A stretch of 64,000 nucleotides of DNA from a virus (IMGVR_UViG_3300031965_000019:2490-66489); one strand, 5' to 3'. Shown: positions 13,142 to 63,900, counted from the stretch's first letter. Made by a program: numbers and translations. The notes: generated by a model from the sequence alone, not told the origin.

Positions 13142-14896
13142 TTAGGCGACATCTCCGTACTTGCCGTTTTTGACATCGGTGAGGACCGCCACGTAGTCCG
13201 CATCCTTCCCCTCGGCGATGAATCCCTCGCAGATCACCCGTGCCTTATCAGCACAAGCCTTGCCGTACTGCTCTTTCTGTAGCCGGTTTCCCGGGGCGGT
13301 CGGTTCGATCATGCCCGCGATCGGATCGTAAGGCAGATCGATCGTCGGCATCCGCTGATAGTGCTCGGTGATTGCCGCGATCGCGTCTGTGAACTGATCG
13401 TTGTTCACCTTGCCGGCGTTCAGACGCTCCATTTCCTTGTCAGGATCGAGCGCGTAGCCGTCCATCTGGAGCGCCTGCAGGTTTTGACGACGCTCGGCAT
13501 TGATCCTGGCATAGCGTTCGACCTGCAACTCTTTCTTGAGCTGCGCGGACTCATCGGAGACACGCCGCAAGTCGGCCTGGACCCGCTGATACTGGATGCT
13601 CTCGGCATGGCTGACGCGGGCGTAAGGTGCCGAAGCGTTTTTCCCATTTCCCGTGGCGTCGTCGACCGAACCGCTGGCCACGCTCATCGAACCGTCGGCG
13701 GAACCCTCGCCGCTGGGGTTTTGTGGACTGCCGTCAACCGAACCGTCCGCCTGATAAGAGGCTGGCCCCGTGGTTTCGTCGCGATCGACTTTCTTGCCGC
13801 CGAGGTCGCCCTCGTTGGCCGTCTGATACGACCCCGCGGCGTTTTCGCCATCGGCTGCGTATCTGCGCTGCTTACGGCTCGCCATGTAGCAATCGATATC
13901 CTCGTCGCTCATGTCGTCCATCGCGGCGTAGGCTTTCTGCATCTTGGCCTTTTGCTCGTCGTCGGACGGGACCGCTGGCGGCGAAACGTCTCCATTGGCA
14001 GCGGGCGGACTTGGCGGGGCAGCGTCCGGGGGAGGTGAAACCGGGGGCGCTGGAGAAGATGGCGGCGCTTGCGGCGTAGGCGGTGCCGGTGCCGTCGGTG
14101 CCGGACTCGGAGTGTCTCCGGCGACTTCGCCACCCGCCAAGCCACCCGACTGTTGAGCCATAAGAGTGCGGATGAATTGGAACTCTTCGGTTTGCCCGAG
14201 TGAATTGCAAATCTGTTGAATGTCTTGCTCGGTCAACATGGTTGAATCCCCAGTGTTGGAGGGTGAATAGTTTTGCCTCTCGTCCTCACTGTCGGGGACG
14301 AAAACATTACTAGGGCCAGGCGCGACGGCCGCGTACTTTTCACGCAGCACGCGCCGACCGCCGCGATGTAAAGTGGCCGAGTACAAGAGCCCCAGATCGA
14401 GTCGAGGCGCTTCCGCGCCCAAGAGCGCAATCGGGTCCAGGAACATTTCCTCGTAACGGTCCTCAAGCCACAGCTCCGGACTGCGTCTTGGGTAACGCTT
14501 GAAGCGATTGACTTCGTCGCGAAAGATGTGAAAATCGGCCAGAATAGCCCAGCGTTGACGAGTGCCAGCCTGGCCAATCTTACCCATGCGAAACGGGCCA
14601 GCGAAACCAACCACCTCGGGCTCGGCGCCGCCGCCAGGCTTTTGCGTGTGGCCGATGCACACGGCCGCGAAGTCGCCGCTTTCAGCAATGCGACGATTGC
14701 ACCGATCGCAGACCAGCTTGAGCTCGTTGTACGTGAACTTGAGATCACGGCCGCGTCGGTCCTGCGTCTCATGCTCGGCGAACACGGGCACGTTGGCGAT
14801 GCTGACGAACTCGTCGTCGGGGAAGTCGCCTGGCTGCCGGACGTTTCCTTGCGGAACGGCCATCGCCATGTCGGAGGCTTGGACGGTCGCGACCAT
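13142..14896 (-). CDS. Mu gpI-like prohead protease with scaffold (584 aa)
   Basis: IGHT and RRSPEL putative catalytic motifs, ALLGAEAP; Pro-rich linker; coiled-coil C-terminus. Confidence 0.8.
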   Translation of the reverse strand: MVATVQASDMAMAVPQGNVRQPGDFPDDEFVSIANVPVFAEHETQDRRGRDLKFTYNELKLVCDRCNRRIAESGDFAAVCIGHTQKPGGGAEPEVVGFAGPFRMGKIGQAGTRQRWAILADFHIFRDEVNRFKRYPRRSPELWLEDRYEEMFLDPIALLGAEAPRLDLGLLYSATLHRGGRRVLREKYAAVAPGPSNVFVPDSEDERQNYSPSNTGDSTMLTEQDIQQICNSLGQTEEFQFIRTLMAQQSGGLAGGEVAGDTPSPAPTAPAPPTPQAPPSSPAPPVSPPPDAAPPSPPAANGDVSPPAVPSDDEQKAKMQKAYAAMDDMSDEDIDCYMASRKQRRYAADGENAAGSYQTANEGDLGGKKVDRDETTGPASYQADGSVDGSPQNPSGEGSADGSMSVASGSVDDATGNGKNASAPYARVSHAESIQYQRVQADLRRVSDESAQLKKELQVERYARINAERRQNLQALQMDGYALDPDKEMERLNAGKVNNDQFTDAIAAITEHYQRMPTIDLPYDPIAGMIEPTAPGNRLQKEQYGKACADKARVICEGFIAEGKDADYVAVLTDVKNGKYGDVA

Positions 14897-14939
14897 CGCA
14901 TTGCAGTTGCTCGATTTTCTGAATGGCGTCGAGACAAAT

Positions 14940-14985
14940 AAAAAAGGCCGGGCCGCACCCGCTGTGGATGCGAACCCGGCCTTTT
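14940..14985 (-). terminator. Intrinsic terminator-like hairpin upstream of protease gene
   Basis: Minus strand GGCCGGG…CCCGGCC followed by TTTTTT. Confidence 0.65.
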
Positions 14986-15094
14986 GTGCTCGACCGGAAA
15001 TTTAAGTTTTGACTGCCAGCCCTGGGACTCCAGGGCAACGCCTGCATTCTTGATCGTTTAGGGAGGGTCTGTCAAGCCTTTTCGAGAAAAAGGC

Positions 15095-15292
15095 TCAATC
15101 CGGCGAGAGATTCTTGTTGAGGCTGCTGCGGGCATCGGTCGCTAGGCCATTGCTGATATTGATGTTGACCACGATATTTCCGCTGAGTTTCTTGGCTAGC
15201 ACAAGCCGTAGCAGCTCTTGAAGTTCCCGGACGGCGGCCAGCTTCCAGCGTTTACTGCTATCAGTATCGACTCCCTGGTGGACGATGCTCAC
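15095..15292 (-). CDS. Small hypothetical protein (65 aa)
   Basis: GTG start with GGGAG SD just after portal stop; track ORF 15095..15577 overextends it. Confidence 0.5.
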   Translation of the reverse strand: MSIVHQGVDTDSSKRWKLAAVRELQELLRLVLAKKLSGNIVVNINISNGLATDARSSLNKNLSPD

Positions 15293-15302
15293 CTGCCGCT
15301 CC

Positions 15303-18032
15303 CTAGACCATTTGCGCCATATAGGCTTCCAGGACTTGCTTGCGGAAGAACATTTCACGCTGGGCGCCGGTGAGCCGGCTCGGCCGCTTTGGTTTTGCGG
15401 CTTGCTGCCCCACATGGGACGGGTCGACGTCTTTGAACAGGCCGCGCTGGCCAGGCAGCGATGCCGCCTGCTTGGCCGGATGCTCCCAGCCGGTGAAGTC
15501 GATCGCCGCGAACTGACCGCCGCTGTCGCGATTGTGCTTGGATTCGCTCCAATCGGTGCCGTAGTCAATCCGATCATCGGCAGGATCGAACGTACCGCGG
15601 TTGCCGGTGGCGGATTTTATCTGGTTCGGATTGAAGGCAATCCAGACACGGCCGTAGTCACCTTCACGTTCAAGTCCAAGGCGGACGCTTCCAGCAACGT
15701 CCCCAGCCATGTGAGTTATTCCATCATATCCAGCAGAAGCGATGAGATCATTTACATGCGACTTAGTGCGGTAGTTTAAGAATAACCTCCAAAGATCTCG
15801 ATGCTTCATTCCATCATCATCTTTGTAGTAAAGAGAAACTGTGTCGTGGATTTCCTCGGATTCACGCTCTGAGATTAGTCGCGACTCGACAGTGCGAGAC
15901 ACAATCCTCTGGGCCTCTTCAAGCTCGATCGGCGAATCGTAGTCGAACGGCCTGCGGATATTGAGATAAACGGCGCGGATATGGCTGTCATCGGATGCGT
16001 ACATTGACGCGATTTCTTTGTTCTCGGCAAAATAAAACCCTTTGCCGACCATAGTCGCCCCTGATTTCTCAGGATCGAAGGCATCGAAATCTGCATCAGT
16101 GCCGTGGTAAACAACCTTGCCATCGCCGTGAGTTTCTTGTGGCTCACCAGTTCCCTTGTTGACCACCTTGCTAGAATTTGCCCGATCATTCTCCCAGTCA
16201 CCAAACCACGCCTTGAACTCTGGTGTCTCAGTCTGCTTGGAGCGGCTCTCAGTGGCCACCGCTGTTTCGCCGACGTCGGTGAACTTACCGTCATCGGATC
16301 GCGGGTGTTCCTCTTCTCGAAACGCCGCGTAACTCGCCAGCCGCTTGCGGTCGCTGTTCTCGCTCGGGAGTCCGTTGGCGACATACTCGGCTTGCTCCGC
16401 GGCCTCTGCCGGCGCGGAAGGCGTCGGCTCCGCAGACTGTCCATTCGAGCTCGGATCGCCGAACTGGCCAATGTTCGCCCCGGGGACCGGGCCCATCGCG
16501 CCCATCTGTGCCGATTGCGCCGCGGCCTGCTGCTCTTTCATCTGCTCGAATTTGTCCAGGACTTCGGAATCCGGCTCTGGCGCCGGCGCGCCTATGAGAT
16601 CGCGAAGCTGCTTGGCGTCCAGTCGCAGGCCCATCTCGTAAGCCTTCAAAAACGCCTCGATCATCGACTCCGCGTCGGGCTCGCGAGTGTGAATCACGAA
16701 CCTGAAGTCGACGTTGGCCATCCGCGGCAGGGCGAGCTTCTTAATCGGACTCAACAGGTCCGTAGTAATCGTTTCCTCCAGCAGCATGGAGTCGTAACGC
16801 ACGATCTGCATGAAGACATCCATTTGAACGTCGGCGAGATTCGAGCCGAGGCCCGTGGCCGACGCTTCCGTGGTGAGCGTCTGGCCGAGGATGTAGCGCT
16901 TGATCGAGTGGCCGAAGTATTCGGTAATGATGCTTTTGAGGGACTCGACTCCGCCCATGCCTGGCTCGATTCGCTCCACACCGTAGACCTGACCGTCCTC
17001 GCCCATCGGTCGCGGGACCATGATGATGTTGCGGCCGTTTTCGATTTTTTCCTCGGCGGCCTTGCGCATTTCGGCTTTGGCCGTCGCATTGCCCATTGGG
17101 TAATACCAGATTTCGATGCCCATTGCCGAGCGTTCCATGAAATCCATCATATTGGCGAGCGTCTCTTGCTTCTGGTACCAAGTCCAGTAAATGACGGAAC
17201 GAATACCGACTCCGTGAATCCGGCCGGCGTTAGCCGGATCGTGATAGTCGCCGTCCTCGATCCGGTGCTTGTGGACCGCCAGCAGAATCGACTCCCAAGT
17301 GTCCAGAAAATACGCCAGTCCGTGATCGGTCGCTTCCAACTTGCGGACCCGTTCCACCGTGCCTCGGAAGCCACGCGAGCGATAGTGGTCCTGCATCTGA
17401 CTCAACTGGTTGACGCCCGTGTAGATGCCCGCGCCGACTCGAATCCCGATCTGATCGGGCCGGTGGTCGTTCATGCCGTCGTCGTACCGAAACACGATCT
17501 TGTCGCCGTTCACTGGCAGCCACCGCAACGGCATGGGACGCATCTTGCCCGCGACTAAGCGGTAGCCCCACTTGTGCTGGATGCCGTATTTTCCGTACCA
17601 CGTCGCGTGCAGTAGATTCTCACGATACTGCATAAAGCGGGGAATCTTTTCCAGGATTTTCGTGAGGATCTGTGCCGCCTCTTTCTGCTCGGCATTGTTC
17701 GCGTCCTCGGGCTCGACGCTCCAATCCAAGAGTGCCACGGCCCGCTGCCGCATTTCGACGCACTCCATGATCGTGACGTCGTTACGCATGAATTTGGCAT
17801 TGTCGAAGCTGTCCTGGATTGCCTCGTCGCTGGCGCGATAGACTTTGGCCTGCGAGCCGGCAATGCCCTGAAAAGTGAAGGCGTGGCGCAATAGGTAGTC
17901 GCCCAGATTGGGCGGCATTCCGTCGATGCCGGATGCCGGATCGTCGCCCGCGTCAAACCGCTCGTCGCCTATTTTCAGCGGATCGCGACGCATGGAATCG
18001 CCAAGATCAATGACTGTGCCTGTAGCGGCCAT
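15303..18032 (-). CDS. Portal protein (DUF935 / Mu gp29-like) fused to C-terminal ADP-ribosyltransferase-like domain (909 aa)
   Basis: Start MAATGTVID at 18032 with AGGGGG SD; portal region …ILGQTLTT…; then EFKAWFGDW…YHGT…GFYF…QIKSATGNRGTFDP. Confidence 0.85.
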   Translation of the reverse strand: MAATGTVIDLGDSMRRDPLKIGDERFDAGDDPASGIDGMPPNLGDYLLRHAFTFQGIAGSQAKVYRASDEAIQDSFDNAKFMRNDVTIMECVEMRQRAVALLDWSVEPEDANNAEQKEAAQILTKILEKIPRFMQYRENLLHATWYGKYGIQHKWGYRLVAGKMRPMPLRWLPVNGDKIVFRYDDGMNDHRPDQIGIRVGAGIYTGVNQLSQMQDHYRSRGFRGTVERVRKLEATDHGLAYFLDTWESILLAVHKHRIEDGDYHDPANAGRIHGVGIRSVIYWTWYQKQETLANMMDFMERSAMGIEIWYYPMGNATAKAEMRKAAEEKIENGRNIIMVPRPMGEDGQVYGVERIEPGMGGVESLKSIITEYFGHSIKRYILGQTLTTEASATGLGSNLADVQMDVFMQIVRYDSMLLEETITTDLLSPIKKLALPRMANVDFRFVIHTREPDAESMIEAFLKAYEMGLRLDAKQLRDLIGAPAPEPDSEVLDKFEQMKEQQAAAQSAQMGAMGPVPGANIGQFGDPSSNGQSAEPTPSAPAEAAEQAEYVANGLPSENSDRKRLASYAAFREEEHPRSDDGKFTDVGETAVATESRSKQTETPEFKAWFGDWENDRANSSKVVNKGTGEPQETHGDGKVVYHGTDADFDAFDPEKSGATMVGKGFYFAENKEIASMYASDDSHIRAVYLNIRRPFDYDSPIELEEAQRIVSRTVESRLISERESEEIHDTVSLYYKDDDGMKHRDLWRLFLNYRTKSHVNDLIASAGYDGITHMAGDVAGSVRLGLEREGDYGRVWIAFNPNQIKSATGNRGTFDPADDRIDYGTDWSESKHNRDSGGQFAAIDFTGWEHPAKQAASLPGQRGLFKDVDPSHVGQQAAKPKRPSRLTGAQREMFFRKQVLEAYMAQMV

Positions 18033-18043
18033 CGGCTGACCCC

Positions 18044-19222
18044 CTATCGAAAGTTGAACGGGCTCGGTTTCATGGTCGCGCCGCTCGTAAGCACCTTGAT
18101 TTTTCCAGTGCTCACGCTCTTGACCCGGACGGTTCGCTGAACATACATTTCGCCTTCGGCCGTCATAGTAGCCTTGCGCGGGACGTAGTTGTTTCTGACG
18201 CCGACGAGCTGATAATCGTGCTGGTGGCCAGAAATCGTGCCGCGAATTCTCAGGCTGTCCCACACCCAGCCGCCCTTGGACGCCGCGGCGTGTAGTCCAA
18301 GAAACTTCTGGGGTCGTACATTCGCATAGCTGTAGAGGCTCCCCGCGACTCCGTAGACCATGTGCGACTGAAACCGCACGTAGAGCGTCCATGTGTCGAC
18401 GTCATAGGAATAGCTGTAGACGTTGGACGATTGGGGCGTGCGGACCATTTCCTTGGTGACAATCGGATGCGTCGCCGGGAACCTGCGCCGCGAGCCGTCG
18501 CCAAAGTCGACGTCGATCACCTTGCGTGGCTGACCGCGTCCGGTGGTTTTCGAGACACCGCCAGGATAGGTCGATTCGTCGACGGTTGTCGTGGGCTCGT
18601 CGCTCAGCCCTCGAGCCTTGGCAGCGGCCCCAGCCGCTCCCACCTTTCCGGCCTGTGGTTTTACTTCGTACCCGTGGGTTTCGAGGAATTCTTTGGCGGC
18701 TTCGATCTGGTCGGCGACTTCACGCGCGGACCGATTGGCGATCGGCTTTTGCAGACGAGACGCCTTGCGGCCGCGGGTCGAGAGCATATCTGGCGCTACC
18801 GCGTCCAGGAAATCCAACGCCGTCTGGATATCGCCACCGAGGCCGCTCTTGCGGGCCCTGCCGCCACTGGTCACCAGCGACCGGATGAGGGAGCCCACCG
18901 GACCCATCGTCGAGAGAAACTCGCCCAACAGTTGCGCAGTCGATCCCCCGAGGCGGGCGTAACGCTCCACTTCGCGTACCATGCGACCGAAGTCATTCGA
19001 CAACAGCGAGTTCCTCACCGTGTCGTTCAACCCGCCGCGTCCCCAAGACGTGAGGGCGTCGCGGATGGCCGTGCCGGCGCTGGCGTGTTTCCCAGAATTC
19101 AGCGCGGAGCGGACCTGGCCGATGGCTTTGGCCGCGGTCGTGCGTTGCCACTCGCGACGGGCCGATCTCTGGACGGTACGTGACGCGAGGCGAAACAACG
19201 GATTGATGTGAAAGTTGCCCAT
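18044..19222 (-). CDS. KTSC-domain protein (392 aa)
   Basis: SSNVYSYSYD…TLYVRF…YSYANV…AASKGGWVW KTSC pattern near C-terminus. Confidence 0.7.
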   Translation of the reverse strand: MGNFHINPLFRLASRTVQRSARREWQRTTAAKAIGQVRSALNSGKHASAGTAIRDALTSWGRGGLNDTVRNSLLSNDFGRMVREVERYARLGGSTAQLLGEFLSTMGPVGSLIRSLVTSGGRARKSGLGGDIQTALDFLDAVAPDMLSTRGRKASRLQKPIANRSAREVADQIEAAKEFLETHGYEVKPQAGKVGAAGAAAKARGLSDEPTTTVDESTYPGGVSKTTGRGQPRKVIDVDFGDGSRRRFPATHPIVTKEMVRTPQSSNVYSYSYDVDTWTLYVRFQSHMVYGVAGSLYSYANVRPQKFLGLHAAASKGGWVWDSLRIRGTISGHQHDYQLVGVRNNYVPRKATMTAEGEMYVQRTVRVKSVSTGKIKVLTSGATMKPSPFNFR

Positions 19223-19225
19223 GTG

Positions 19226-19606
19226 TCAGTTCACGCTTAGTTTCACCAAGCCATAGTGGAAAATCGGACTCGGCACGTATTCGGTAGTTGTCGGCATGAG
19301 CCGCAATACGTAGCAATCCGACGGATGGAACAATTCATGTTCGATCGCATCCACGATCGACAGACTATGGTGGAGCCACAGGAAATACTGCCAAGCCGCG
19401 ATCGGCCCTATCGGTATCACGATGTGAAATAGGCGATAGCGATGATGCTCGTATTCCGGCTGAAAACCGCCGACAAGGCAGTCGCCGGCCAGGACTTCGC
19501 ACCCGCTCTTGATTCGCGAACACTGAAACTTATCTTCGCGCTCTAGCTGCGCATGGAGCATCCCGTGCAAAGGTCCGCCGACGCAAATTGTTTCCAGACG
19601 TTCCAT
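19226..19606 (-). CDS. Hypothetical protein (126 aa)
   Basis: ATG 19606 just after TerL stop; CVGGPLHG start common in small phage proteins. Confidence 0.55.
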   Translation of the reverse strand: MERLETICVGGPLHGMLHAQLEREDKFQCSRIKSGCEVLAGDCLVGGFQPEYEHHRYRLFHIVIPIGPIAAWQYFLWLHHSLSIVDAIEHELFHPSDCYVLRLMPTTTEYVPSPIFHYGLVKLSVN

Positions 19607-19610
19607 TTGA

Positions 19611-21314
19611 CTATCGTCTCGGCATGATCCCGTTGGTGGCACGGCGCAGGGCCCGTTCGAGCTTCCCTCTGGAGAATTGTACCGACTTTCTGTCCGTGGC
19701 GCTCGATGTTTTTTTCGTGCTCTCGATAGTTTCCGACACGGGCAGTGCCGTAGTGAACACCAGATAGCGGAGCGCATCCACCGTATCATCATCCCGTTTC
19801 AGGGGTTCCGGCTTCGCGACTTGCGGATTGAGGACCGAGCCTTGCGTAGGCTTCCTACCGCGCTTCCAGCGATATTTGCGCAGCTCTTCAATGAGGTGCT
19901 TGCAACGGCTCGAAATCCGAATCCGAGGTTCGCCCGTAGTGGGGTGGCACTTGAGCGCCGTGCGAACCGCGTTGATCCCGTCGTAAACCGCATTGCGGGC
20001 CGGCCCGGTAGGAATCCCGTAGCGGCAGTATTCGTTGATCTCGCCCGGCCGCGCGGGATCCGCGTAGTTCATCCCCCATAGAGCATCGCGCGTGGTGAGC
20101 AATCGCTTGTGGACGCGAATCACTTCGCCACGCTCTTCTTGCTCGCCTGGTCGCAATTCCCGCACTCTGTTGGTGCTCACTGCGGTGCGATATGTCTCGA
20201 TCGGCCAGCCCCACCGCTCATAGATTTCCAGCATGGCGAGCGCGTGGTCCTCATTGATCTTGTTTTGATCGATCGACCAAAATTCGTCATATATCAGCCA
20301 GTCTCCTATCGTGTCCTGGCAGCCGAACACTGCGGTCTGCGGATGCTCGGCAGACGCTCCCCAGTCGGTAGCCGAGTTGTGCCGAGCCCCCACGGGGATG
20401 CGCACTTGATCCTCGGGGATGACGTGGATTCTCTGGTTGAACGACGGATAGATGACGCCCTCGAAAGACGCCAAGGCGCCGGTCTCGCGCGTGGCCCGCA
20501 TTTCGTCCGGCACCAAGGCGAAGAATTGCTCGTACCAGCCGGGTTGCAGATTCGGGACGTTTTTTAGCGTGTTGGCCCGATAGAACCGCCAGCCCGCGGG
20601 GACATTGTCCATCGCCTTTTCGACCCAGATCGAGAGCTCGGGATCCACCGGCGTAAACTCGGCAAACTGGCCGCCCGGGAACATATACTCGCGACAGCCG
20701 CGGAGCACCTCCAGAAAGATATCCAGCGGGAACTGCTCACTAAACCAGAAACCGCCGATCGAGCGGGCCTGCATCGCCTGTCGGCCTTGCTCGTAACTCT
20801 TGAACTCCAAACGCCAATTCTTGGTCGGACTGCCGCCGCGCGACTCCGGCCACGGCTTCAACGGCACGCTCTTGGGGCGATTGAGTTTCTCAGAAAACCA
20901 ACTCACCCGCTCCCAATCCACTTCGCAAGACGGGATGTGGCCGTGACCTTCGAGCTTCTCGCCCCAGCACACGTCCATGCACTGCTCGTAGGTCTCGGCG
21001 ATGATCCAAAACGGGGTGTCTTTTCGTGGCGGCGGCTGTTGGTGCAATAGGAACTGCGCGGTCTTAAAACTCGCGCATTCTGTGGTCCCGGAAGCATTTC
21101 CGCCAACCATGAATGAAACTTGGTCGCGGTTGTAGCAAAACGATTCCTGCTCGTCGAAGTCAGCTGGGGCATCTGGCCGCGGGATGAAACTGTAATAGAA
21201 ATCCTCGCCGTCCATCGACTCCAAAAATCCGCGCACGACGGGATCGATCTCGGCTAGGGCGAGCACTTCGTCGATCGTGACTTCGGGTGCGGAGACCATG
21301 CTAATTCTTCTCAC
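19611..21314 (-). CDS. terL: Terminase large subunit
   Basis: Degenerate Walker A GGNASGTT, FWFSEQ Walker B region, nuclease ATDWG and C-terminal DDDTVDALRY. Confidence 0.88.
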   Translation of the reverse strand: MRRISMVSAPEVTIDEVLALAEIDPVVRGFLESMDGEDFYYSFIPRPDAPADFDEQESFCYNRDQVSFMVGGNASGTTECASFKTAQFLLHQQPPPRKDTPFWIIAETYEQCMDVCWGEKLEGHGHIPSCEVDWERVSWFSEKLNRPKSVPLKPWPESRGGSPTKNWRLEFKSYEQGRQAMQARSIGGFWFSEQFPLDIFLEVLRGCREYMFPGGQFAEFTPVDPELSIWVEKAMDNVPAGWRFYRANTLKNVPNLQPGWYEQFFALVPDEMRATRETGALASFEGVIYPSFNQRIHVIPEDQVRIPVGARHNSATDWGASAEHPQTAVFGCQDTIGDWLIYDEFWSIDQNKINEDHALAMLEIYERWGWPIETYRTAVSTNRVRELRPGEQEERGEVIRVHKRLLTTRDALWGMNYADPARPGEINEYCRYGIPTGPARNAVYDGINAVRTALKCHPTTGEPRIRISSRCKHLIEELRKYRWKRGRKPTQGSVLNPQVAKPEPLKRDDDTVDALRYLVFTTALPVSETIESTKKTSSATDRKSVQFSRGKLERALRRATNGIMPRR

Positions 21315-21481: not shown

Positions 21482-21500
21482 TTCAATATCTTCCGTAACC

Positions 21501-30416: not shown

Positions 30417-30839
30417 TTAGCGGCGGCCCGCGCCTTTCCAGTTCGCGGGAGCCCAAACAAATGTGTAGTACGTTCTACCGCCAACGCTGTAGGCGGCAGC
30501 GCCGGCCCAGTAAGCTCTTGTGTCCGTTCCTGGATTGCCCCTCCCATTTGGGAAGTGGTAGCACGTCGAGATTCTGCGCCCATAAGGATCGTTGCCGTGT
30601 TGATAACCGACGCCTTCCCACGTTCCCGAGAGCATCCCGCCAACGTGGCCCATGCGTCCACGCGCGGCTTGCATTCTCACCGAACGATCGGCTACGGCCA
30701 TGAGTGCGGAGTGATATCGCACCGGCTGATAGCCGCTCTGGACCCGACGCAAATTGACCGCGTTTAACACGTGGATATCGGCCCAGCACTGCGCGGCCAG
30801 CAGCAGCACGAGAGCCAGCGATAGGATAGGTCGGGTCAC
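30417..30839 (-). CDS. Secreted CAP/SCP-domain protein
   Basis: Signal peptide; LNAVNLRR…L..VA…GRMGH CAP pattern. Confidence 0.75.
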   Translation of the reverse strand: MTRPILSLALVLLLAAQCWADIHVLNAVNLRRVQSGYQPVRYHSALMAVADRSVRMQAARGRMGHVGGMLSGTWEGVGYQHGNDPYGRRISTCYHFPNGRGNPGTDTRAYWAGAAAYSVGGRTYYTFVWAPANWKGAGRR

Positions 30840-31855
30840 TGGTCGCTTACTCTTTCCGGGTTTAACGTCCCCACCAGCCGCGCGCCGTCGGTCAGACCTG
30901 TGAGCTGTGCCGCGAACGATTGGGAAGCTATTGCAGGCGACTCCTCGCCGCCCAGCAATGAATCGTTGAGGTACTCGTAGAACAGGCGCTTGTAGTCGAT
31001 AAAGCCGCGCCCCGACACAAAGTCGTATCCAGGCTGCCCCAAATCTACCACATAGGTCTGTAGCTTTAGCAGCGCCTCATCATTCACCGACACGCGCTTG
31101 CCGAAGAACTTCTTCTCGCCAGCTGTCAGCAGCGAGCCGGTTCCAGCAACATGCGGACACGCGAACGACGTGCCATCCATAAGCTGCACCTGACCGTTAG
31201 GAAGAATGCACGGCACGGCCACGCCTGGGGCGACAAGATCAATACCTTCTCCGCCGTTGGAAAATCTCGCCACATTGAATTGTTCATCCATTGCGCCGGG
31301 AGCGACCGCGTAAAATGCCGGGTAGCTAACACTGCGTCGACGACCCTCATTGCCGCTCGCAAACACGCACGGCACGTTGTAGTCCTTAGCGTACTCAACG
31401 GCTTTCTCCAGTTCCTTGCTCGCGAATCGACCGCCGAACGCTCCGCTGATCCAGGTCGCGCCGTTGTCGACCGCGTAGCGAATCCCGGTAGCGATCCACT
31501 CGTTCGCGCCAGAGCCGCCATCGTCCAAGACTTTCACCGGCATGATGCTAGCCTGGGGATTGACCCCGTAGGTCTCGCCGGCTGCTACGCCAGCGGTTGC
31601 CGTGCCGTGGAAGTTACGGTCTCCCCAATCGTCGTCGTGGGGGATAAACGATCTCCCCTTGACGATACGTCCCGCAAACTCCGGGTGATTCTTGGTGATT
31701 CCGGTGTCGAGATTAGCGATTGTTTCACCGACGCCGCCAACGCGATCTTGGATGGCGCGGAGATTGAACAGTCTGAGATGCCAAGGCACTGTTTGAGCGA
31801 ATGCGTCGACTGCCGGCGACGCGAAGCCGACCCAGGGAATTCTTACGTCGTTCAT
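30836..31855 (-). CDS. Subtilisin-like S8 serine peptidase (339 aa)
   Basis: Catalytic triad motifs LDTGI, HGTATAG, GTSFACP; ASGN oxyanion motif. Confidence 0.92.
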   Translation of the reverse strand: MNDVRIPWVGFASPAVDAFAQTVPWHLRLFNLRAIQDRVGGVGETIANLDTGITKNHPEFAGRIVKGRSFIPHDDDWGDRNFHGTATAGVAAGETYGVNPQASIMPVKVLDDGGSGANEWIATGIRYAVDNGATWISGAFGGRFASKELEKAVEYAKDYNVPCVFASGNEGRRRSVSYPAFYAVAPGAMDEQFNVARFSNGGEGIDLVAPGVAVPCILPNGQVQLMDGTSFACPHVAGTGSLLTAGEKKFFGKRVSVNDEALLKLQTYVVDLGQPGYDFVSGRGFIDYKRLFYEYLNDSLLGGEESPAIASQSFAAQLTGLTDGARLVGTLNPERVSDQ

Positions 31856-55902: not shown

Positions 55903-55951
55903 CACCAAAACACCCATATCGTGAGAATTTTTGAGAAAAAAACAAGCCGGC

Positions 55952-56338: not shown

Positions 56339-56407
56339 CACGGAAAACCCTGGAGCGGGCGTAAACGATTCTCGGCAGGACCAAGAACCGAGTCGGGGCC
56401 TCACGGC
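56339..56407. repeat. 69-bp direct repeat, copy 1
   Basis: One mismatch to 56748..56816. Confidence 0.9.
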
Positions 56408-56443
56408 ATCCGGGCCTCTCCCATAGTTCAGGAGGTTCCTTTA

Positions 56444-56704: not shown

Positions 56705-56731
56705 CTTCGCGTTCTGGTCGATCACTCCCAT
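56543..56731 (-). CDS. Small Zn-ribbon protein (62 aa)
   Basis: GGAGGTG SD; CPGC…CPSC. Confidence 0.6.
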   Translation of the reverse strand: MGVIDQNAKLDVKCPGCGRNFKQTVRRAQRDFDCPSCGFSFKGAGFTRKIKDSAKSILEFWR

Positions 56732-56747
56732 TGTTCACCTCCAAATT

Positions 56748-56816
56748 CACGGAAAACCCTGGAGCGGGCGTAAACGATTCTCGGCAGGACCAGGAACCGA
56801 GTCGGGGCCTCACGGC
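56748..56816. repeat. 69-bp direct repeat, copy 2
   Basis: One mismatch to 56339..56407. Confidence 0.9.
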
Positions 56817-56908
56817 TGACCGCCACTCCAGGGGGGAACTGTGGGGACGGGGCCAAGAGGCCCCTTTTTTCTTGACGTCTGCCAATCCACCTGCGCTGTG
56901 GAACAAAG

Positions 56909-56980
56909 CTCCCGGGGCTGGACTCGAACCAGCAACCGATCGGTTAACAGCCGATTGCTCTACCATTGAGCTACCCGGGA
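56909..56980 (-). tRNA. tRNA-Asn(GTT), no encoded CCA
   Basis: TCCCGGG/CCCGGGA acceptor, GCTC/GAGC D-stem, ATCGG-CTGTTAA-CCGAT anticodon arm, GGTTCGAGTCC T-arm. Confidence 0.95.
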
Positions 56981-57143
56981 CCGCGTTTCCCCTCCAGCGC
57001 TACTAAGCCGCTTGCGTTGGAAGTCGCTGGAAAGCGGCGAAAAGTTGTTGTCCCCGACCCCCACTGGAACTATATTGAAGCCAACACCCTAACGGCCGGC
57101 TGAGTCGGCATGGAGAACAACGGATTGCGCGGAGAGACGCGCC

Positions 57144-57965
57144 ATGATTGCCGTCGCCGATTCTTTTGTCGCCCATGCCGAGCGATACATGCTGGCTAAT
57201 CCTTGCTGTCGAAAGCACCGGGAAAACATACGGGGTCGCATCCGTCGCTTCGTGGCGTGGTTCCCGGGCTCCCCGAAATCGCTGGCGCCCGAAGACCTGA
57301 ATGGCTTTCTGGCTTCCCTGGAGCGCGCCGGCCTCAGCGCTCACACTGTCAACGGCTACCGCGCGACAATCATGGCTGTCTGGCGGTTCGTGCTGGGAGA
57401 AAGAATTCGTTGGAAGATAAGGCGGGTACGTCCGCCGCAGAGAGAAGTGAAAGCCTGGAGCGTCGGCCAAGTGCGACAACTGCTGAGCGTTGCCGTGACG
57501 TTGCGTGGCCGGCTGCCCAACGGCGTGCAGCGGCGGCTGTTTTTCCTAACGGCGATCCACGCCGGGTTTTCCACGGGACAGAGATACGGGGATCTGGCCA
57601 GACTGCCAGTGGCGGCGATTCGAGCCGATAGGACGGCGACCTTCGTTCAATCCAAGACGGGCCGTCGCGTCACTGTTCGTTTCAGCGATAAGGCGGTGCG
57701 CTGCATTCGAGCTCACGGGCAGGCGACGGTAATTCCCAATCCGCACACGCAGCAGTGGTTTTGCGTGGCGTTCGGCGATTTGGTGGAACGAGCCGGGATC
57801 AGGCGCGGGAGCTTCAGGTGGCTCCGCCGCAGCGCGGGCTCGTATGTCGAGCGGGCGACTGGGCGAGGGCCGGAACTGCTGGGGAACACCAGAGCCGTGT
57901 TCGAGGCGAATTATCAGGCGGAGTCAATCACGAGGCGAGCACCGCCGGAGCCGCCGCGGCTGTAG
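57144..57965 (+). CDS. int: Tyrosine recombinase / integrase (273 aa, divergent)
   Basis: SAM-like N-terminus, TGQRYGDL, QSKTG, FRWLRR, LLGN, Tyr in ANY. Confidence 0.8.
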   Translation: MIAVADSFVAHAERYMLANPCCRKHRENIRGRIRRFVAWFPGSPKSLAPEDLNGFLASLERAGLSAHTVNGYRATIMAVWRFVLGERIRWKIRRVRPPQREVKAWSVGQVRQLLSVAVTLRGRLPNGVQRRLFFLTAIHAGFSTGQRYGDLARLPVAAIRADRTATFVQSKTGRRVTVRFSDKAVRCIRAHGQATVIPNPHTQQWFCVAFGDLVERAGIRRGSFRWLRRSAGSYVERATGRGPELLGNTRAVFEANYQAESITRRAPPEPPRL

Positions 57966-58172
57966 CTACCACGGGTCGTCTACTTCACGGTAGTGAATTA
58001 TTGCCGAGCCGTTCGGCGTCCGCCCCAGGAGGATCGCGTCGAATTCCGAACCGCGCACGGACACCACGAATCCACCGCTCGCGGACCGCTGGAGCACGCT
58101 CCAGGGATCGTCGTGGAACGCTAGTCGCGCGTGAGCGATAACGTCGGTTTCAGTGAGAGCTATTGCGTTCAT
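57966..58172 (-). CDS. Hypothetical protein (68 aa)
   Basis: ATGA overlap with PEP-CTERM gene. Confidence 0.45.
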   Translation of the reverse strand: MNAIALTETDVIAHARLAFHDDPWSVLQRSASGGFVVSVRGSEFDAILLGRTPNGSAIIHYREVDDPW

Positions 58173-59095
58173 TCGTTCAACCCCTTGCGGCGTATTCCTA
58201 CAAAGCACCAAATCAACAGCAATAGGGTAGCCGGCTCCGGCACACTTACTGCCCCCAGTGGGCCAACGCCGCTTCCGTACTCACGTTGCCAGGCGAGAAA
58301 ATCATTACCATCCAGATCATCGCCGTAGCGGGTTTCCCAACCAAGGGTCGAGTGTGTGAGGTCGGCGTTGTCCACATCGCCGTCACCATCGAAGTCGGCT
58401 GACGGGCTCACGCCGCTACGGGGCTCATTTAATAACGCAAGCCACGCGACCGGGTGGATTCTCTCAGGATCGTACTCGCCGCTCAGCACGGTCGCCACCG
58501 TTCCCTTGAGCACGTTTTGCATGAAAACGCTCGCGTGGGAGTTGGCGTCGCGGTAGAGGTCTGTGCCCTCTGGCATGTTGGCGAAAATGTTGCCGGTGGG
58601 AATCAGGTAGACGGGATTCGGGATCGTCGGCGCCACGGCGTCAAAAAACGCTTGATAGGTTTCCTGGTCCCATAGGTCTTTGTTAATTTCGCCGCCCACA
58701 TTTGGAGCGTACCATTGTCCCAGCTTTTCCTCGATCGGCCACGCTGCGTAGATGAACACCTTAGTGAGTGGGTTGTTGTTGAGGGTAAGAAAATTTTGCA
58801 GAGCCGCAGACTCCGCTGCAATGTATTGGGATTGCGAATAAGAGTGAGCCGGATGCGTCTGGAACACCAGAGCATCCCACAAATTGTTCGGCAATGCTTC
58901 GGTAAACTTCCCGTAGCTACTCGACGGCACGTTAATCGTGTCCGGATCATTCCAAATATCTTCCATTGGCGATGAGGACCGGATGTGCCAGCCGCCTTGC
59001 AGATGGTCGTACACGTTCGGGTAGAATTTAGGCTGCGAGTCCCAAAGGAACGAAGCCCCGATGGCGAAGTACGTGATAAGGTTTGGCATGTTCAT
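58169..59095 (-). CDS. PEP-CTERM protein with SGNH-like domain and dockerin-like repeat
   Basis: IGASF…DANSH; ADFDGDGDVD…DGNDFLAWQR; VPEP, TM and RRK tail. Confidence 0.85.
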   Translation of the reverse strand: MNMPNLITYFAIGASFLWDSQPKFYPNVYDHLQGGWHIRSSSPMEDIWNDPDTINVPSSSYGKFTEALPNNLWDALVFQTHPAHSYSQSQYIAAESAALQNFLTLNNNPLTKVFIYAAWPIEEKLGQWYAPNVGGEINKDLWDQETYQAFFDAVAPTIPNPVYLIPTGNIFANMPEGTDLYRDANSHASVFMQNVLKGTVATVLSGEYDPERIHPVAWLALLNEPRSGVSPSADFDGDGDVDNADLTHSTLGWETRYGDDLDGNDFLAWQREYGSGVGPLGAVSVPEPATLLLLIWCFVGIRRKGLNE

Positions 59096-59128
59096 ACTCC
59101 CTCTGGAATGTTGACCGGGACGAGCGGC

Positions 59129-59458
59129 TCATTTCCGCCTCACGTAGCGTTGAAGAAACTCGCGAATGACTTTCGATGGGGTGGTTTCCTCTTGGTATGC
59201 CCTCAACTTGAGAGCGTTCCATAGTTCATCTGACAGCCTAAATGTTCTTGTTGGTTCCTGACCAGTTGCGGGACGACCAACTTTTTTAGCATTTGCATTG
59301 GCGCGTATTCTTTTAATGGGAATCAACGATTGCCTGTTGTACTTGGGACGAAGTTTCTTGATCCACCAGCGTTCAATGACTCCCATGCCACAATTGTCGC
59401 ACGGTAGTACGAACATTGCCTGATCGATAGATTCGTGGATGGGCTGCCTACTTCTCAT
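59129..59458 (-). CDS. GIY-YIG-like fragment plus RHH DNA-binding protein
   Basis: IERWWIKKLRPKYN; GRPATG..PTRTFRLSDELW…VIREFL. Confidence 0.6.
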   Translation of the reverse strand: MRSRQPIHESIDQAMFVLPCDNCGMGVIERWWIKKLRPKYNRQSLIPIKRIRANANAKKVGRPATGQEPTRTFRLSDELWNALKLRAYQEETTPSKVIREFLQRYVRRK

Positions 59459-59639
59459 TTCGTAGCTTCCTCTTGGCTGCCCTCAATAGCGTGTCGCGAG
59501 CCCAAACCGATGGCTGCGGAGCCCCCGCATTATCAATGAGGGACCGTTCATCCACCGTCAGTTTGATAAACAGCGGCGTGGCGTCCTTGGCTTCGCCAGG
59601 GGCCTTGGGAGGCCTGCCACGCGTGATTTTCTTACCCAT
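59448..59639 (-). CDS. RHH-like small regulator (63 aa)
   Basis: GRPPK…IKLTVDERSLI…SVWARDTLL. Confidence 0.7.
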   Translation of the reverse strand: MGKKITRGRPPKAPGEAKDATPLFIKLTVDERSLIDNAGAPQPSVWARDTLLRAAKRKLRNEK

Positions 59640-59717
59640 GCGGCCATTATCCACGTGGTTCTCATTATCGGCAAGCCTGAAAGTCAGAAAAATTTCCAAA
59701 TTTCGTACCTACACCTA

Positions 59718-59745
59718 TTTACAGGCTAGCCGATAATGTTATACT
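59718..59745 (+). promoter_or_regulatory. Rightward promoter candidate
   Basis: TTTACA-16 nt-TATACT with TG extension. Confidence 0.55.
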
Positions 59746-59807
59746 GAGGGTGTCGGCTGAGGCGTTTCAAGCGGTAATTCGGTTTTGACGAAAGCGAGGG
59801 TAAGACA

Positions 59808-60230
59808 ATGACAGACGCCCATTTTGACCACAGTGCTACCTATTCCCCCGAGGACAACAAGTTGCGGCTCTATCCAGCCTATCGGCTGCCGAAAGACGAG
59901 TACGATCGTTTGCGGGCCGCTGGCTTCAAGTGGGCGCCGCGGCAGGAACTATTCGTCGCTCCCATGTGGACCCCGCAACGGGAGGACTTGCTGATCGAAA
60001 TGGCCGGAGAGATCGGGGACGAGGACACGTCTCTGGTCGACCGGGCCGCAGAGCGGGCGGAGCGGTTTGGCGAGTATTCTGACGCTCGGCGTCATGCCGC
60101 CGAGTCGGCCAGGAAAGCCGTCGACCGAATCGCGGATGACTGGATTGACCTGCCGGCCGGGTCGTTCAAGAATGCCGGGACCAACGTCAACGCGGCGATC
60201 GTGGTGATCGGAGCCGCAGAAAGCGAGTGA
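59808..60230 (+). pseudogene. Internally deleted DUF3560-methyltransferase fusion
   Basis: ATYSPEDNKLRLY…GFKWAP…RAERF joined directly to LPAGSFKNAGTNVNAAIVVI. Confidence 0.65.
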
Positions 60231-60295
60231 AGAACTGACCGCTAGCGGCTAAAATTCACTCGCCAAGGATGCCGCGGGAGGTGTAGAATAAGGCC

Positions 60296-60553
60296 ATGAG
60301 CCGATTGAGTACCAAGCATGTTTTTCTTCCGCTCACCAATCGCACGGGACGCACGATCAGGGTCGGCGAGATACTACTTCCGCATCCGCTGATAGTCGAT
60401 CCCACCGAGCATGTCATCGAGCGCGACATACAACCTGGGCACCATGTTTACGTCGCCATTACCGAAGGATTGGAGGGCTCGCAACTCGATATCGTGGAAG
60501 AGGATTGCTGTTTGGTAATGAGAACCATTTCCAATGGTAAGGATGCCCCATGA
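60296..60553 (+). CDS. Hypothetical protein (85 aa)
   Basis: Co-oriented ORF. Confidence 0.45.
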   Translation: MSRLSTKHVFLPLTNRTGRTIRVGEILLPHPLIVDPTEHVIERDIQPGHHVYVAITEGLEGSQLDIVEEDCCLVMRTISNGKDAP

Positions 60554-60837
60554 ACAGTCAATTGATGCTTGTTGTCGATGTAGATCTCGCCACGCAACAC
60601 AGCAATGGTCGCACGCCTAGGCAAATGATGAACGACTTAGGCGTTCGCCATGAAAGTGAAGGCGACGTTTTCGCGCAGTTTGTGGGACCGACTAAATATG
60701 GTCAGTGCCTATTCGGCGGTATCGATGAATCTACATTGCCGGCAGAGTTGCCAGTGTGGGTTAAGGCGATAAACACATCTGCCGGTGGAAATCTTGGACG
60801 ATCGCAAGTCGCTGCTGCGCCGTGCTGCGGAACTTGA
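60550..60837 (+). CDS. Hypothetical protein (95 aa)
   Basis: ATGA overlap. Confidence 0.5.
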   Translation: MNSQLMLVVDVDLATQHSNGRTPRQMMNDLGVRHESEGDVFAQFVGPTKYGQCLFGGIDESTLPAELPVWVKAINTSAGGNLGRSQVAAAPCCGT

Positions 60838-60910
60838 AACACAGGGCAAGCGAGTGTTTTTCTTCGTTTGGGCCGATTACTGGGATAGCCAACCAAGGTG
60901 AGGGATTGCC

Positions 60911-63900
60911 ATGAACGCCACGCTCGCCATCCGCAAAGCCTTCCGCATCCAGCGTTACCGAGAACGATTCCGCGCCGCCACCGACCAGCGGATCCACGTC
61001 CGAGACAGAGCGGCGCTCGTCGCCGCGCTCAATGAGCAATTCTCACGGCAGCGCTACGCGGCCGACGATCACCAGTGGGTCACCATCGGCGGCAGTGCCG
61101 AAGGCGGTAAGAAACACGCCGGCGGGACGCCAGTCAGGCTGGACGAGTCTGGGCAGATTACCGCGGGCCCACCATCGCTTGAAGGCAAGTCGATTCACAG
61201 TCTCGGCAAGGCACCGGAGTCTGAGCCAGACGGCGATCTCTTTAGCGACGTCAAAGCGGCCGACAAGGCCGGTGCGTTCACGGGTCGGAAGTCGGAACCG
61301 GCCAGCGATGCGATTCCCAAGGCGCAGCCAGCTCGCGTCGGCGGCATCGACGCACCTTCCGTCAAATCCATGCCAGACGGGCGCAAGGTGGGACTCACGC
61401 TGCTGCGTCCCGACGAAATGGAAGCGGACCCGGCGCGATTCCAGTACAAGGTGAGCGGCATCGGCGACGAAGGCGTCACGGAAGAGTTGAAAGAGATCGA
61501 GCGATTCCGGCCGGAGTTCGCCGGACAACTCTTGGTGTGGCACGATCCGAAGGATGGAAAGACGTATGTCGTCAACGGTCACCATCGTTTCGAGCTCGCC
61601 CGCCGCTCTGGATACGACCAGCCGCTTCCAGTCTATCTCATCGATGTAAAGGATGAACGTGGGGCCCGTGCTCAAGGGGCACTGGCCAATATCGCCGAGG
61701 GCCGTGGCACCGCGATTGACGCGGCCAAGTTTTTCCGCGAGTCCGACATGACGCCGGATGAACTCAAGTCCGAGGGCGTATCGATGAAGGGCAAGACAGC
61801 CGACGAGGGCCTTAGTTTGTCGAAGCTATCGGAAAACTCCTTTACTGCTCTGGTAAACGATCAACTCGACGAGAAACGGGCGCTGGCCATTACCAGGAAC
61901 GTCGACGATCACGACAAGCAGGACGAGATTCTGCGATCCGTCCGCCGTTACGAGCAAGCTGGCCGGCCTATGCGCGACGATGCCGTGGAGGAAATGGCGA
62001 TCGACGCCGCGCTCACGGAATCGGTGGTCGAAGAGCAAACCGACCTGTTCGGGACAGAAGAGGTGAAGCGGTCGCTCGCCGCCGAGCGGGGCGTGCTCAA
62101 AGCGGCGGTGAAGAGCGAACTATCGCGGGAAGCTCGTGCTTTCACCGAGGTCGGGTGCCGCGGCCGCGCCGAAACACTGGCCGAGGCGGGCAACGTACTG
62201 GATATCTCCGGCAATCAGCAGCGGGCACAAGCGGCGCAACAATTATTGGCACAGTTTGTCAGCGATACCAAATTCAAGGGAGGAATCAACGATGTCATCA
62301 ACGAATTCAGCAATCGACTCACCAAAGAACCCAAGCGAGAAAAAGAACTCATCCGAGAGCTCGTCGCCCAAGTCCGAACCATTTTATCACAAGCTGACTC
62401 CGGAAGAGAAAAAGCATCTGGCCCGGCAGACGGCGGAGATTCAGCGGCTCGAGAAGGCTACCGGAAGAGAACAGAGCGGGCCGTCTTTACGCTAAGGGAA
62501 TCGCTCACCAACATGCGGTTCGCGCGGCAACTCGCTTACGGGATCGAGGCGCTGCGGTACGCCAAGGGATTCGTCGAGTCTGAGCATCCGCGGGACGATG
62601 AGGGGCAGTTCACCAGCAACGGCAGTTCCGCGAAGCCGCCGGCAGAAACGGAAATCATAAATCCTTCCAAGTCTCTGGCGGACCGGTTCGGAGATGACGC
62701 GAAGCAAGTTCCGGCGAAGATTTCCGAGGGACGCAGCCAACGTGAAATCAATCGCTGGCAAGAGAAACTGAACAAGGATGGTGACAAGGCGCTCCAAGCG
62801 CTCAGCGGTTATCTCGCCAGCCTCATTATTGGCCGCGACTTCAACGAACAACCCGACAAGTATTTCGAGCGGCAAGGGCTCACGGAGTTCGTGAAATGGT
62901 CTCGCACCGCCAAAGCTGATCTACAAAAGTCAGCCGAAGATCCCACGCCACGTCGAAAAGACGGTAAGCCAATTTGGAACCAATCGAATCGAGGACTACA
63001 AAACAGGTCGTTGCAAGTCGCGATGGCAGCGGGGCACAAAAACTGGAAAGTGAGCGACTTGCCGAATTCCGCTCAGGAAGTATTGGCCGATAAGAAAATA
63101 GACAGAAACCTCGGCTTGTTGCCGGAAGATGCCGACCAGAGAATCGCCAAGGCATTCGAGGATACGCCGGCCGCGATGCGAGCAGGACTCGTAACTGTGT
63201 TGCGTGATCGACTTGATCCCTGGTTTTACGACTGGGTTCCGACCCCAGAGGGTCGCACCGCCAAGACCGAGACGGGCGACGATAGGGACCAACTCCAGCG
63301 GGAAATGTTCCACCGCATCGCCGGCCACTTACTCCGCTACGGAATGCTGGAGCACAACGCGACTTGCTTCGGCGGGGACTGCTACGTGCTGGACAAGCCC
63401 AAGCCGCGGCAACAGGACTACGCGGCCGGACAATGGGACGAGTCAAAACACCCACGCGCGGCTGACGGCAAGTTCGGCAGCGGGTTCGGCCAGGCAGCGA
63501 CCGCGGAGCCGCCGTCCACGCCATCCACAGACGCGCCACAGGCCCACGGTGAGGCGCAGAGTCAGTCGGCTGATCTTAGTGAGATTCACCGCCGCTACCC
63601 GCCGCACAATCCCGATGGCCACGACACGCAGTCGCGATACAAGCGTCCCGACGGATCGTACACACCCGAGCGAAAGCGGCTCCATGATTCGATCATCGGC
63701 AAGCACCTGGAGGGCGTGACGCCGTCGGAGTCGCCCACGGTCTACATGCTCGGCGGCGGGACGGCCTCCGGCAAAACTAGTGCCATCAAGTCGGGCCTCA
63801 TCAAACTGCCGACCAACGCGGCACAGGTCGACCCGGATGCCATCAAGGGCGAGCTCCCCGAGTACGCGGCTCTCACAGAGGCCCGAGACGTGATAGCGTC

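Follow-up and report, generated by a model that had tools for sequence, protein, structure and literature searches.

We analyzed a window of 64,000 nucleotides (bases 2490-66489) from a virus record, IMGVR_UViG_3300031965_000019, which is complete at 67,819 bp and has 127-bp direct terminal repeats. The window carries the head genes of a phage and, at its right end, the gene of a polyvalent protein. Three of the encoded proteins are central here (Table 1): a Mu-type portal protein extended by an ADP-ribosyltransferase (ART) module, a protease-scaffold protein, and the polyvalent protein, in which a ParB-like part (residues 168-478), a middle module and a Zeta-toxin-like kinase (from residue 933) follow one another. 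We found that the portal and the polyvalent protein share a short tag, [W/F]-x-E-x-x-H-[P/N]-R-x3-G-x-F, that is present in exactly four copies in the window, each with a tyrosine site shortly upstream. A first-pass annotation had proposed that Y-A-A marks prohead-protease cleavage sites and that the tag targets proteins to the capsid. From the positions, distribution and covariation of these motifs we infer a cut, its bond and the enzyme that makes it: on balance, the sequences favor the tyrosine sites being recognition sites of the phage's own prohead protease, which would cut after the tyrosine and free modules headed by the tag.

Table 1. Genes, modules and junctions discussed in the text. 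Positions are counted from the first letter of the window, and the predicted bond follows the tyrosine given.
Feature	Position	Strand	Remarks
Portal open reading frame (ORF)	15303-18392	-	1029 codons; database gene call is 909 amino acids
Portal_Mu core, portal residues 202-601	16590..17789	-	Pfam PF06074, E 2.5e-40
Portal junction 1: S-Y, A-A (Tyr688), then tag 1 (691-704), ahead of ART	16281..16334	-	56.4 bits
ART-PolyVal ADP-ribosyltransferase module, portal residues 755-935	15588..16130	-	PF18760, E 3.5e-26
Portal junction 2: D-Y, G-T (Tyr944), then tag 2 (948-961), after ART	15510..15566	-	57.7 bits
Portal tail, 68 residues after tag 2	15306..15509	-	jackhmmer: in three related portals whatever the cargo
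Protease-scaffold ORF, 584 residues	13142-14896	-	Between portal and capsid genes
Candidate assemblin-fold prohead protease, N-terminal domain, residues 1-188	14333..14896	-	Invariant His42, His83, Ser139
Release-type site K-Y, A-A (Tyr188, K-Y-A-A-V-A-P) and 13-residue copy of capsid N-terminus	14294..14338	-	
Linker site A-Y, A-A-M-D-D (Tyr323)	13913..13936	-	Conserved Y-x-A column
Linker site R-R-Y, A-A-D-G (Tyr346)	13847..13867	-	
Major capsid protein candidate gene	11447-12490		
Capsid candidate, N-terminal 13 residues after Met	12449..12487	-	Mimicked by protease-scaffold 14294-14332 (-)
Polyvalent protein gene, 1147 amino acids in full	60911-64000	+	Extends past window end; ParB-like, middle and Zeta-like modules
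Polyvalent basic leader, 49 residues, ending R-Y, A-A-D-D (Tyr49)	60911..61069	+	Q-R-Y-A-A-D-D from 61049
Polyvalent junction 1: R-Y, A-K (Tyr550), then tag (554-567), ParB-like/middle boundary	62555..62611	+	56.5 bits
Polyvalent junction 2: D-Y, A-A (Tyr837), then tag (842-855), ahead of Zeta-like module	63416..63475	+	49.5 bits
KTSC-domain protein, 392 residues	18044-19222	-	Directly before portal gene
Peptidase_S8 subtilisin	30836-31855	-	E 3.8e-35

Tag copies and tyrosine sites in the phage

Two of the tag copies flank the ART module of the portal and the other two lie in the polyvalent protein. A six-frame search with the pattern H-[P/N]-R-x(2-5)-G-x-aromatic returned only four matches, each of which lies in the portal or the polyvalent frame, and a profile built from the four tags scored 49-58 bits on these copies versus 5.5 bits on the next best sequence of the 89-ORF proteome. 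All four tags fall between Pfam domains, as the first-pass annotation had described for its motifs at domain boundaries, and every string it quoted was found in frame at the coordinates it gave. Tag 1 of the portal reads His696-Pro-Arg (His codon at 16307) and tag 2 is an H-N-R variant, His953-Asn-Arg (codon at 15536); relatives carry diverged forms of tag 2 (H-K-R, H-A-R) with the tyrosine site kept.

Y-[A/G] stands 8-10 residues before the histidine of the tag in all four copies. The proteome contains nine Y-A-A tripeptides, and seven of them are in the portal, protease-scaffold and polyvalent proteins, which together hold 13% of its residues. Tyr323 provides a third site in the protease-scaffold, one that had escaped the first-pass annotation. 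The 49-residue leader of the polyvalent protein, which ends at a tyrosine site, is conserved in a relative that has both the tyrosine site and a full tag at that place. We considered whether Y-A-A-D-D-H-Q-W at this place in the present phage is a degenerate tag and rejected it, as it was not scored by the tag profile even though the relative has a true tag there.

The tail that follows tag 2 of the portal is matched over approximately 65 residues by portals at three loci of relatives (L043, L034, and L078). A helix of this tail, Q-R-E-M-F-F-R, is similar to Q-R-E-M-F-H-R at residues ~796-802 of the polyvalent protein, close to where its middle module ends.

It had also been proposed that the shared motifs tie the right-end gene to this phage. 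The polyvalent gene does belong to the same phage, because the record represents a single complete genome, terminal repeats included, and the motif is not needed for this conclusion. Moreover, a relative encodes an ortholog of the polyvalent gene on the same contig as orthologous head genes.

The head genes of the phage and of its relatives are arranged in the order TerL, KTSC-domain gene, portal, protease-scaffold, a small gene and the capsid gene. In all four sampled relatives that show the region, a KTSC-domain gene is likewise found upstream of the portal, either adjacent or one to two small ORFs away; a MuF gene was not found, and the KTSC gene precedes the portal instead. Since the long portal ORF overlaps the KTSC gene, the true portal start is probably Met121 at 18032. 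The Portal_Mu match covers the whole domain (profile positions 7-335 of 336). The polyvalent protein matches PF06414 (Zeta; E 2.7e-14), phrog_21 (C-terminal part; E 2.1e-67) and the ParB-like phrog_1033, so that two polypeptides of the phage hold at least two domains, Portal_Mu with ART-PolyVal and ParB-like with Zeta_toxin. The Zeta-like module (63600-64000 (+) and beyond) also gave a weak match to the XopAJ/AvrRxo1 zeta-toxin effector model, at 32.6 bits where the cut-off is 300; it is a distant relative only.

Distribution of the tag across phages

We compared the tag profile with 1.84 billion representative proteins and found 850 matches at E<=1e-3, all with at least two copies, because a single copy is too weak to reach significance. 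Within the best 150 proteins, 499 instances gave the consensus [A/K]-[A/K]-[D/E]-[W/F]-D-E-S-[K/E]-H-P-R-[D/A/G]-x2-G-x-F, in which Glu, His, Pro, and Arg are 97-100% conserved, and these instances displayed no preference for an upstream tyrosine. The gap between copies has a median of 250 residues, at least 80 residues follow the last tag in 135 of 145 proteins, and the first tag lies no more than 60 residues from the N-terminus in 45 of 145. These sequences suggest that tag copies act as module leaders, nearly always ahead of a domain-sized stretch.

GNAT, ADP-ribosyltransferase, HMG-box and M90 peptidase domains were found among sampled tag carriers. The HMG-box of one surveyed protein, P0157 (E 8.4e-14), is an unusual phage cargo. 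The sampled tag carriers adjoin portal and terminase genes of several unrelated families (Portal_Mu, Phage_portal, HI1409-type), and three cultured or prophage examples show a portal core, an acidic linker, the tag and a cargo domain in that order. Pseudomonas phage Orimi01, Xanthomonas phage PhiXhv-5 and Gordonia phage Forza are among the cultured phages with the tag. A full tag also occurs inside the protease-scaffold of a related phage (L009:9905-12076), directly after a release-type site.

Short-peptide tblastn with two probes matched 8 and 14 phage records; in the collection of plasmids, three times the size of the phage one, the matches numbered 0 and 1. This search is insensitive and lends weak support to a phage bias. 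Word searches restricted to the tag region or the portal tail, with E-values scaled to 5.8e9 sequences, gave almost only the query back.

The tag, which is approximately 20 residues long and widespread, is apparently undescribed. Literature searches with tag strings (EHPR, KHPR, HPRxxxG, 'HPR motif') gave no relevant paper, and a mention of the tag was not found in Iyer 2017 (PMC5512222; terms 'HPR' and 'linker') or in a paper on MuF toxins (PMC5576092).

Tyrosine sites and the protease-scaffold family

Judged by its distribution, the upstream tyrosine does not belong to the general tag: Y-[A/G] is found within ten residues upstream of 34 of 463 tags elsewhere (7%) versus four of four here. 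That the tyrosine sites are cleavage sites of a prohead protease is supported by three independent comparative lines drawn from these sequences, namely enrichment of the motif, its covariation with the protease-scaffold family, and a copy of the capsid N-terminus behind one of the sites. The Y-A-A proposed at first is better described as [K/R]-Y followed, across the predicted bond, by A, G, T, or S.

Enrichment was assessed in the linkers of 121 protease-scaffold homologues, the linker being the variable part between the conserved N-terminal domain and the scaffold-like C-terminal part. Y-A-A occurs 159 times in these linkers versus 15.2 +/- 4.0 in shuffles that preserve composition (approximately 10-fold), and [K/R]-Y-A-A occurs 72 times versus 1.1 expected (approximately 65-fold). 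The 186 Y-[A/G]-A linker sites lie in 179 distinct nonamer contexts. K-Y-A-A with an invariant tyrosine (Tyr188) ends the conserved N-terminal domain; the structural model described below has low confidence around this tyrosine, where the chain is presumably flexible.

For covariation, we collected 59 loci that encode the protease N-terminal domain by means of an alignment query, as a query with a single protein gave none. Y-[A/G] stands upstream of 12 of the 21 distinct tags in these loci (Fisher p 2e-8 against background), typically as R-Y-A-K directly before the aromatic residue of the tag. Conversely, five of five sampled outside proteins with Y-A tags adjoin KTSC and Portal_Mu genes in the same order as here; one of the five loci includes a protease homologue, and another of the proteins is on the metagenome-assembled genome (MAG) contig of the closest protease homologue. 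Five tag proteins without the tyrosine served as controls and gave four informative loci, none of which had the KTSC and Portal_Mu head module; each had recurring residues of its own before the tag (L-x-A-S, A-x-L-A, R-K-S).

Lineage specificity of the residues before the tag extends beyond this group. In 137 proteins with several tags, identity over the six positions upstream of the tag is 25% within a protein versus 10% between proteins, a ratio of 2.6 compared with 1.3-1.65 for other flanks, and therefore a lineage-specific element abuts the universal tag. Other lineages have recurring residues of their own before the tag (L-x-A-S, A-x-L-A, R-K-S, and L-x-V-N; loci L075, L076, L077, L073, and L074), and these may be the sites of their own proteases.

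The third line concerns Tyr188. The 13 residues that follow it agree at 9 of 13 positions with the 13 residues that follow the initiator Met of the capsid candidate of this phage. Across 24 non-redundant loci, identity between the two segments is 6.8/13 at the same locus versus 5.7 across loci (permutation p 1e-4). All 24 have Tyr immediately ahead of the matching segment, and in 22 of the 24 this Tyr is preceded by Lys. The likeness begins exactly after the tyrosine in the protease-scaffold and exactly after the Met in the capsid protein, which indirectly marks the bond between the tyrosine and the small residue as the likeliest scissile bond. The residue after the capsid Met is always small, and a small second residue would have the initiator Met removed. 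On these sequences, a cut after Tyr188 would most likely create a second copy of the capsid N-terminus, and the segment may be a piece of scaffold that mimics the capsid N-arm.

The N-terminal domain of the protease-scaffold fits a candidate assemblin-like prohead protease fused to its own scaffold. His42, His83, and Ser139 are invariant in 36 homologues and are candidates for a catalytic role. An AlphaFold model of the domain from these homologues has a mean predicted local distance difference test score of 76, and VIA-align of this model against 48,161 chains placed T4 gp21 prohead protease first (Z 6.9, 116 residues aligned, root-mean-square deviation 4.2) and the varicella-zoster virus protease second (Z 6.3, 110 aligned, root-mean-square deviation 4.1), with cytomegalovirus and Kaposi's sarcoma-associated herpesvirus proteases listed too. 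We take the domain as a candidate assemblin-like protease because these hits are specific, because its gene, placed between those of the portal and the capsid, encodes a fused scaffold-like C-terminus, and because of the invariant His/His/Ser. Sequence comparison gave little: the family profile had no match among PDB sequences at E<=10, Pfam searches of the 36 family members at E<=1 gave chance matches only and no match to the Mu-like protease model, and tblastn of the domain against 50,697 phage records gave no match, so the domain was found in none of the cultured phages of that collection. PHROGs and NCBIfam returned nothing for the capsid candidate.

Predicted processing, tag function and alternative explanations

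These data suggest a junction of two parts. The upstream part, [K/R/D/S]-Y and a small residue, is lineage-specific and likely the site of the head protease, while the downstream part, [W/F]-D-E-S-K-H-P-R-x3-G-K-F, would be a widespread leader that heads cargo modules. In the mechanism we propose, the polyvalent protein, the protease-scaffold and the portal, still joined to its ART extension, would all be assembled into the procapsid uncut. The protease would then release itself at K-Y188, exposing the copy of the capsid N-arm, and would cut its own linker at Tyr323 and Tyr346 (predicted products 1-188, 189-323, 324-346, and 347-584). Cuts at Tyr688 and Tyr944 would leave a portal core that ends at Tyr688 and would free a 256-residue ART module (689-944) and an 85-residue tail peptide (945-1029). 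Cuts of the polyvalent protein at Tyr49, Tyr550, and Tyr837 would yield the leader (1-49) and the ParB-like (50-550), middle (551-837), and Zeta-like (838-1147) modules. The ART module, the portal tail, and the middle and Zeta-like modules would each start 2-5 residues before a tag; the ParB-like module would start at Ala50 with no tag.

Several observations weigh against this reading. The phage is uncultured and known here from its genome alone, and the compared phages are related by ancestry, so that the covariation counts are not independent events. Nine of the 21 tags in protease-family loci have no Y-[A/G], and the residues around the tyrosine vary (Y-G-T and Y-A-K here; Y-E-A in relatives). 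One of the seven Y-A-A tripeptides lies inside the Zeta fold (polyvalent residue 985), and a conserved G-N-Y-A-A occurs within the capsid proteins of relatives, i.e., in a folded domain. With regard to the enzyme, the fold match is modest, with Z below the caution line of 8 set by the tool, and might reflect a common arrangement; Foldseek of the model against the PDB gave no match, and no Pfam, PHROG or NCBIfam model matches the protease-scaffold.

The capsid-targeting role proposed for the tag fared less well than the sites. The tag is real and widespread and would lie near a new N-terminus if the cut occurs, but targeting is not supported, because two copies are on the portal and one is in the protease-scaffold of a relative, and because internal copies are redundant for entry. 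If the cut falls upstream of the tag, the tag stays on the module. Judged from these arrangements, entry into the procapsid is unlikely to be its sole role, and it is more likely that the tag serves the freed module, for example in head placement, in exit through the portal and tail, or in some step inside the host, since each module retains it, copies are repeated, and head-anchored proteins have it too. The polyvalent leader of 49 residues appears to be a better candidate than the tag for a removable signal of entry.

We nevertheless weighed a version in which the sites are cut as proposed and the H-P-R tag brings cargo into the procapsid by way of a capsid, scaffold, or portal surface, in the manner of the T4 capsid-targeting sequence or of encapsulin cargo. 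Tagged proteins are encoded beside head genes, the tag is often near the N-terminus (45/145), and tblastn with one short peptide matched 14 phage records versus 1 plasmid record despite the threefold larger plasmid collection. However, the tagged portal and the tagged protease-scaffold of the relative enter the head anyway, and internal copies, which entry does not need, are conserved like N-terminal ones. The tag is also near-invariant across unrelated portal and capsid families, where a partner on the capsid side would be expected to differ; it would be retained after an upstream cut, unlike the T4 signal; and the conserved leader of the polyvalent protein is separate from it. We therefore regard entry by means of the tag as unlikely.

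A different possibility is that K-Y-A-A is an uncut docking motif for a lineage-specific head component, such as a site for the capsid N-arm, that recruits both scaffold and cargo. The likeness of the segment after Tyr188 to the capsid N-arm, and its co-evolution with it, would fit a non-cleaved docking segment too, which counts against a cut, and the motif is present in multiple copies in scaffold linkers as well as on cargo. Yet the likeness starts exactly after the Tyr and the Met, as a new N-terminus needs and as internal docking would not. The N-arm copy is found only at Tyr188, the other sites share just a tyrosine and small residues, a length that suits a protease site, and tyrosine sites stand at every module boundary. 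Docking without a cut thus seems quite improbable to us.

Comparison with the closest relative bears on a third explanation. This relative is represented by a MAG contig with an integrase, and its portal has flanks as here, with an InPase domain in place of tag 1 and the ART. It retains a diverged tag 2 (H-K-R versus H-N-R here) and the 68-residue tail (L078:1363-3819). In the polyvalent protein of the relative, identity is 52% across the leader and ParB-like module and 61% across the Zeta module; the middle module is different, a true tag follows the leader, and the segment after the tag stands on a different tag. The swap of ART for InPase and the differences between polyvalent modules indicate that tags are also seams of module exchange. 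The junctions could accordingly be scars of cassette shuffling, with the tag stretch a recombination hotspot and the upstream tyrosine a functionless product of drift in the lineage; modules were indeed swapped at tags, and a post-tag segment moved between tags. We consider this very unlikely, given conservation at the amino-acid level (Glu, His, Pro, and Arg at 97-100% in 499 copies from very diverse proteins) and the enrichment of Y-A-A also in scaffold linkers that have neither tag nor cargo; moreover, shuffling and function are compatible.

Least probable of all, and barely credible, is cleavage by another enzyme, either a host protease or the Peptidase_S8 subtilisin that the phage encodes, which could prefer Tyr, as subtilisins accept aromatic residues before the cut, and so speaks against the prohead protease as the enzyme, but is a weak alternative because four relatives that encode the protease-scaffold family yielded no Peptidase_S8 (in records 51-88% complete, so that its absence is not certain), whereas the tyrosine sites travel with that family.

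Relation to known systems

Prohead-protease processing of head-internal proteins and polyvalent proteins are the known frame in which cleavage at the tyrosine sites would stand. Three things appear to be new from the sequences compared: the tag; the combination of this tag with a site particular to the lineage; and the protease-scaffold family, which is apparently specific for K-Y before A and carries a mimic of the capsid N-arm. Iyer, Burroughs, Anand, de Souza, and Aravind (2017; PMC5512222) described polyvalent proteins and their fusions to head proteins, predicted their packaging and injection, and proposed their proteolytic processing, which they ascribed to zincin-like metallopeptidase domains. 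The signature domains of this class are present here (ART-PolyVal, Zeta, and the ParB-like domain of the P1 DdrB type), several effector domains share a polypeptide and one is fused to a head protein. In contrast to that class, the proteins of this phage include no zincin-like metallopeptidase, and the tag and tyrosine sites are additions.

Phage T4 offers the closest precedent for removal of a signal. Its internal proteins and Alt have an N-terminal capsid-targeting sequence that is removed by the gp21 prohead protease, which cuts at Leu/Ile-x-Glu. Both systems have, in the present phage by prediction, head proteins that are injected and a short site for an assemblin-fold protease, and gp21 is the best structural match here. 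However, the T4 signal is N-terminal and removed, while the tag is internal, repeated, downstream of the predicted cut, kept if the cut occurs, and found in many lineages; it is the 49-residue leader of the polyvalent protein that has the layout of the T4 signal.

Herpesvirus assemblin is a protease fused to scaffold, with a release site at the end of its domain and further sites in the scaffold, all ending in Ala before Ser. The protease-scaffold has the same predicted layout and, at modest Z, may share the fold; it differs in its predicted cut between K-Y and A and in having no sequence similarity. For the capsid N-arm copy that follows its release site, we know of no herpesvirus counterpart. 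Phage Mu has a portal (gpH) whose C-terminus is trimmed in maturation and a protease (gpI) with a nested scaffold (gpZ). As in Mu, there is a Portal_Mu portal here, and candidate protease and scaffold share one frame between the portal and capsid genes; unlike in Mu, the protease domain lacks a Pfam match at E<=1 and a KTSC gene, not MuF, precedes the portal. Papers on JBD30 and KS10 held no data on Mu-type cleavage sites.

Encapsulin cargo-loading peptides, which are usually C-terminal and have been shown to bind the shell, resemble the tag as short conserved peptides on diverse enzymes of an HK97-fold shell. In the giant phages phiKZ and SPN3US, one prohead protease cuts many head-internal and ejection proteins during maturation (PMC10052503, PMC7411985). 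Compared with the present phage, the site there is different and the lineage unrelated. The giant-phage site is a small residue-x-Glu, and to our knowledge no shared leader tag has been reported for these phages.

The loading, cutting and release of cargo are little known outside T4 and the giant phages, although head enzymes injected with the DNA disarm the host. As a tentative generalization, which we hold to be possible but doubtful, many tailed-phage lineages may pair a lineage-specific protease site with a universal tag of approximately 20 residues, such that polyproteins and portal fusions would be split within the capsid into modules headed by the tag; the tag would then serve a common later step, such as ordered exit through portal and tail or an interaction on the host side, and in the present lineage a new assemblin-fold family cutting between K-Y and A would unmask a co-evolving copy of the capsid N-arm. 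The tyrosine sites predict exact mature termini that can be checked by mass spectrometry. The protease-scaffold family, if our reading is true, would bring a new specificity and an unusual mimic of the capsid N-arm to the assemblin-like proteases, and the tag would provide a sequence marker for injected phage effectors in metagenomes as well as a handle for loading foreign proteins into capsids.

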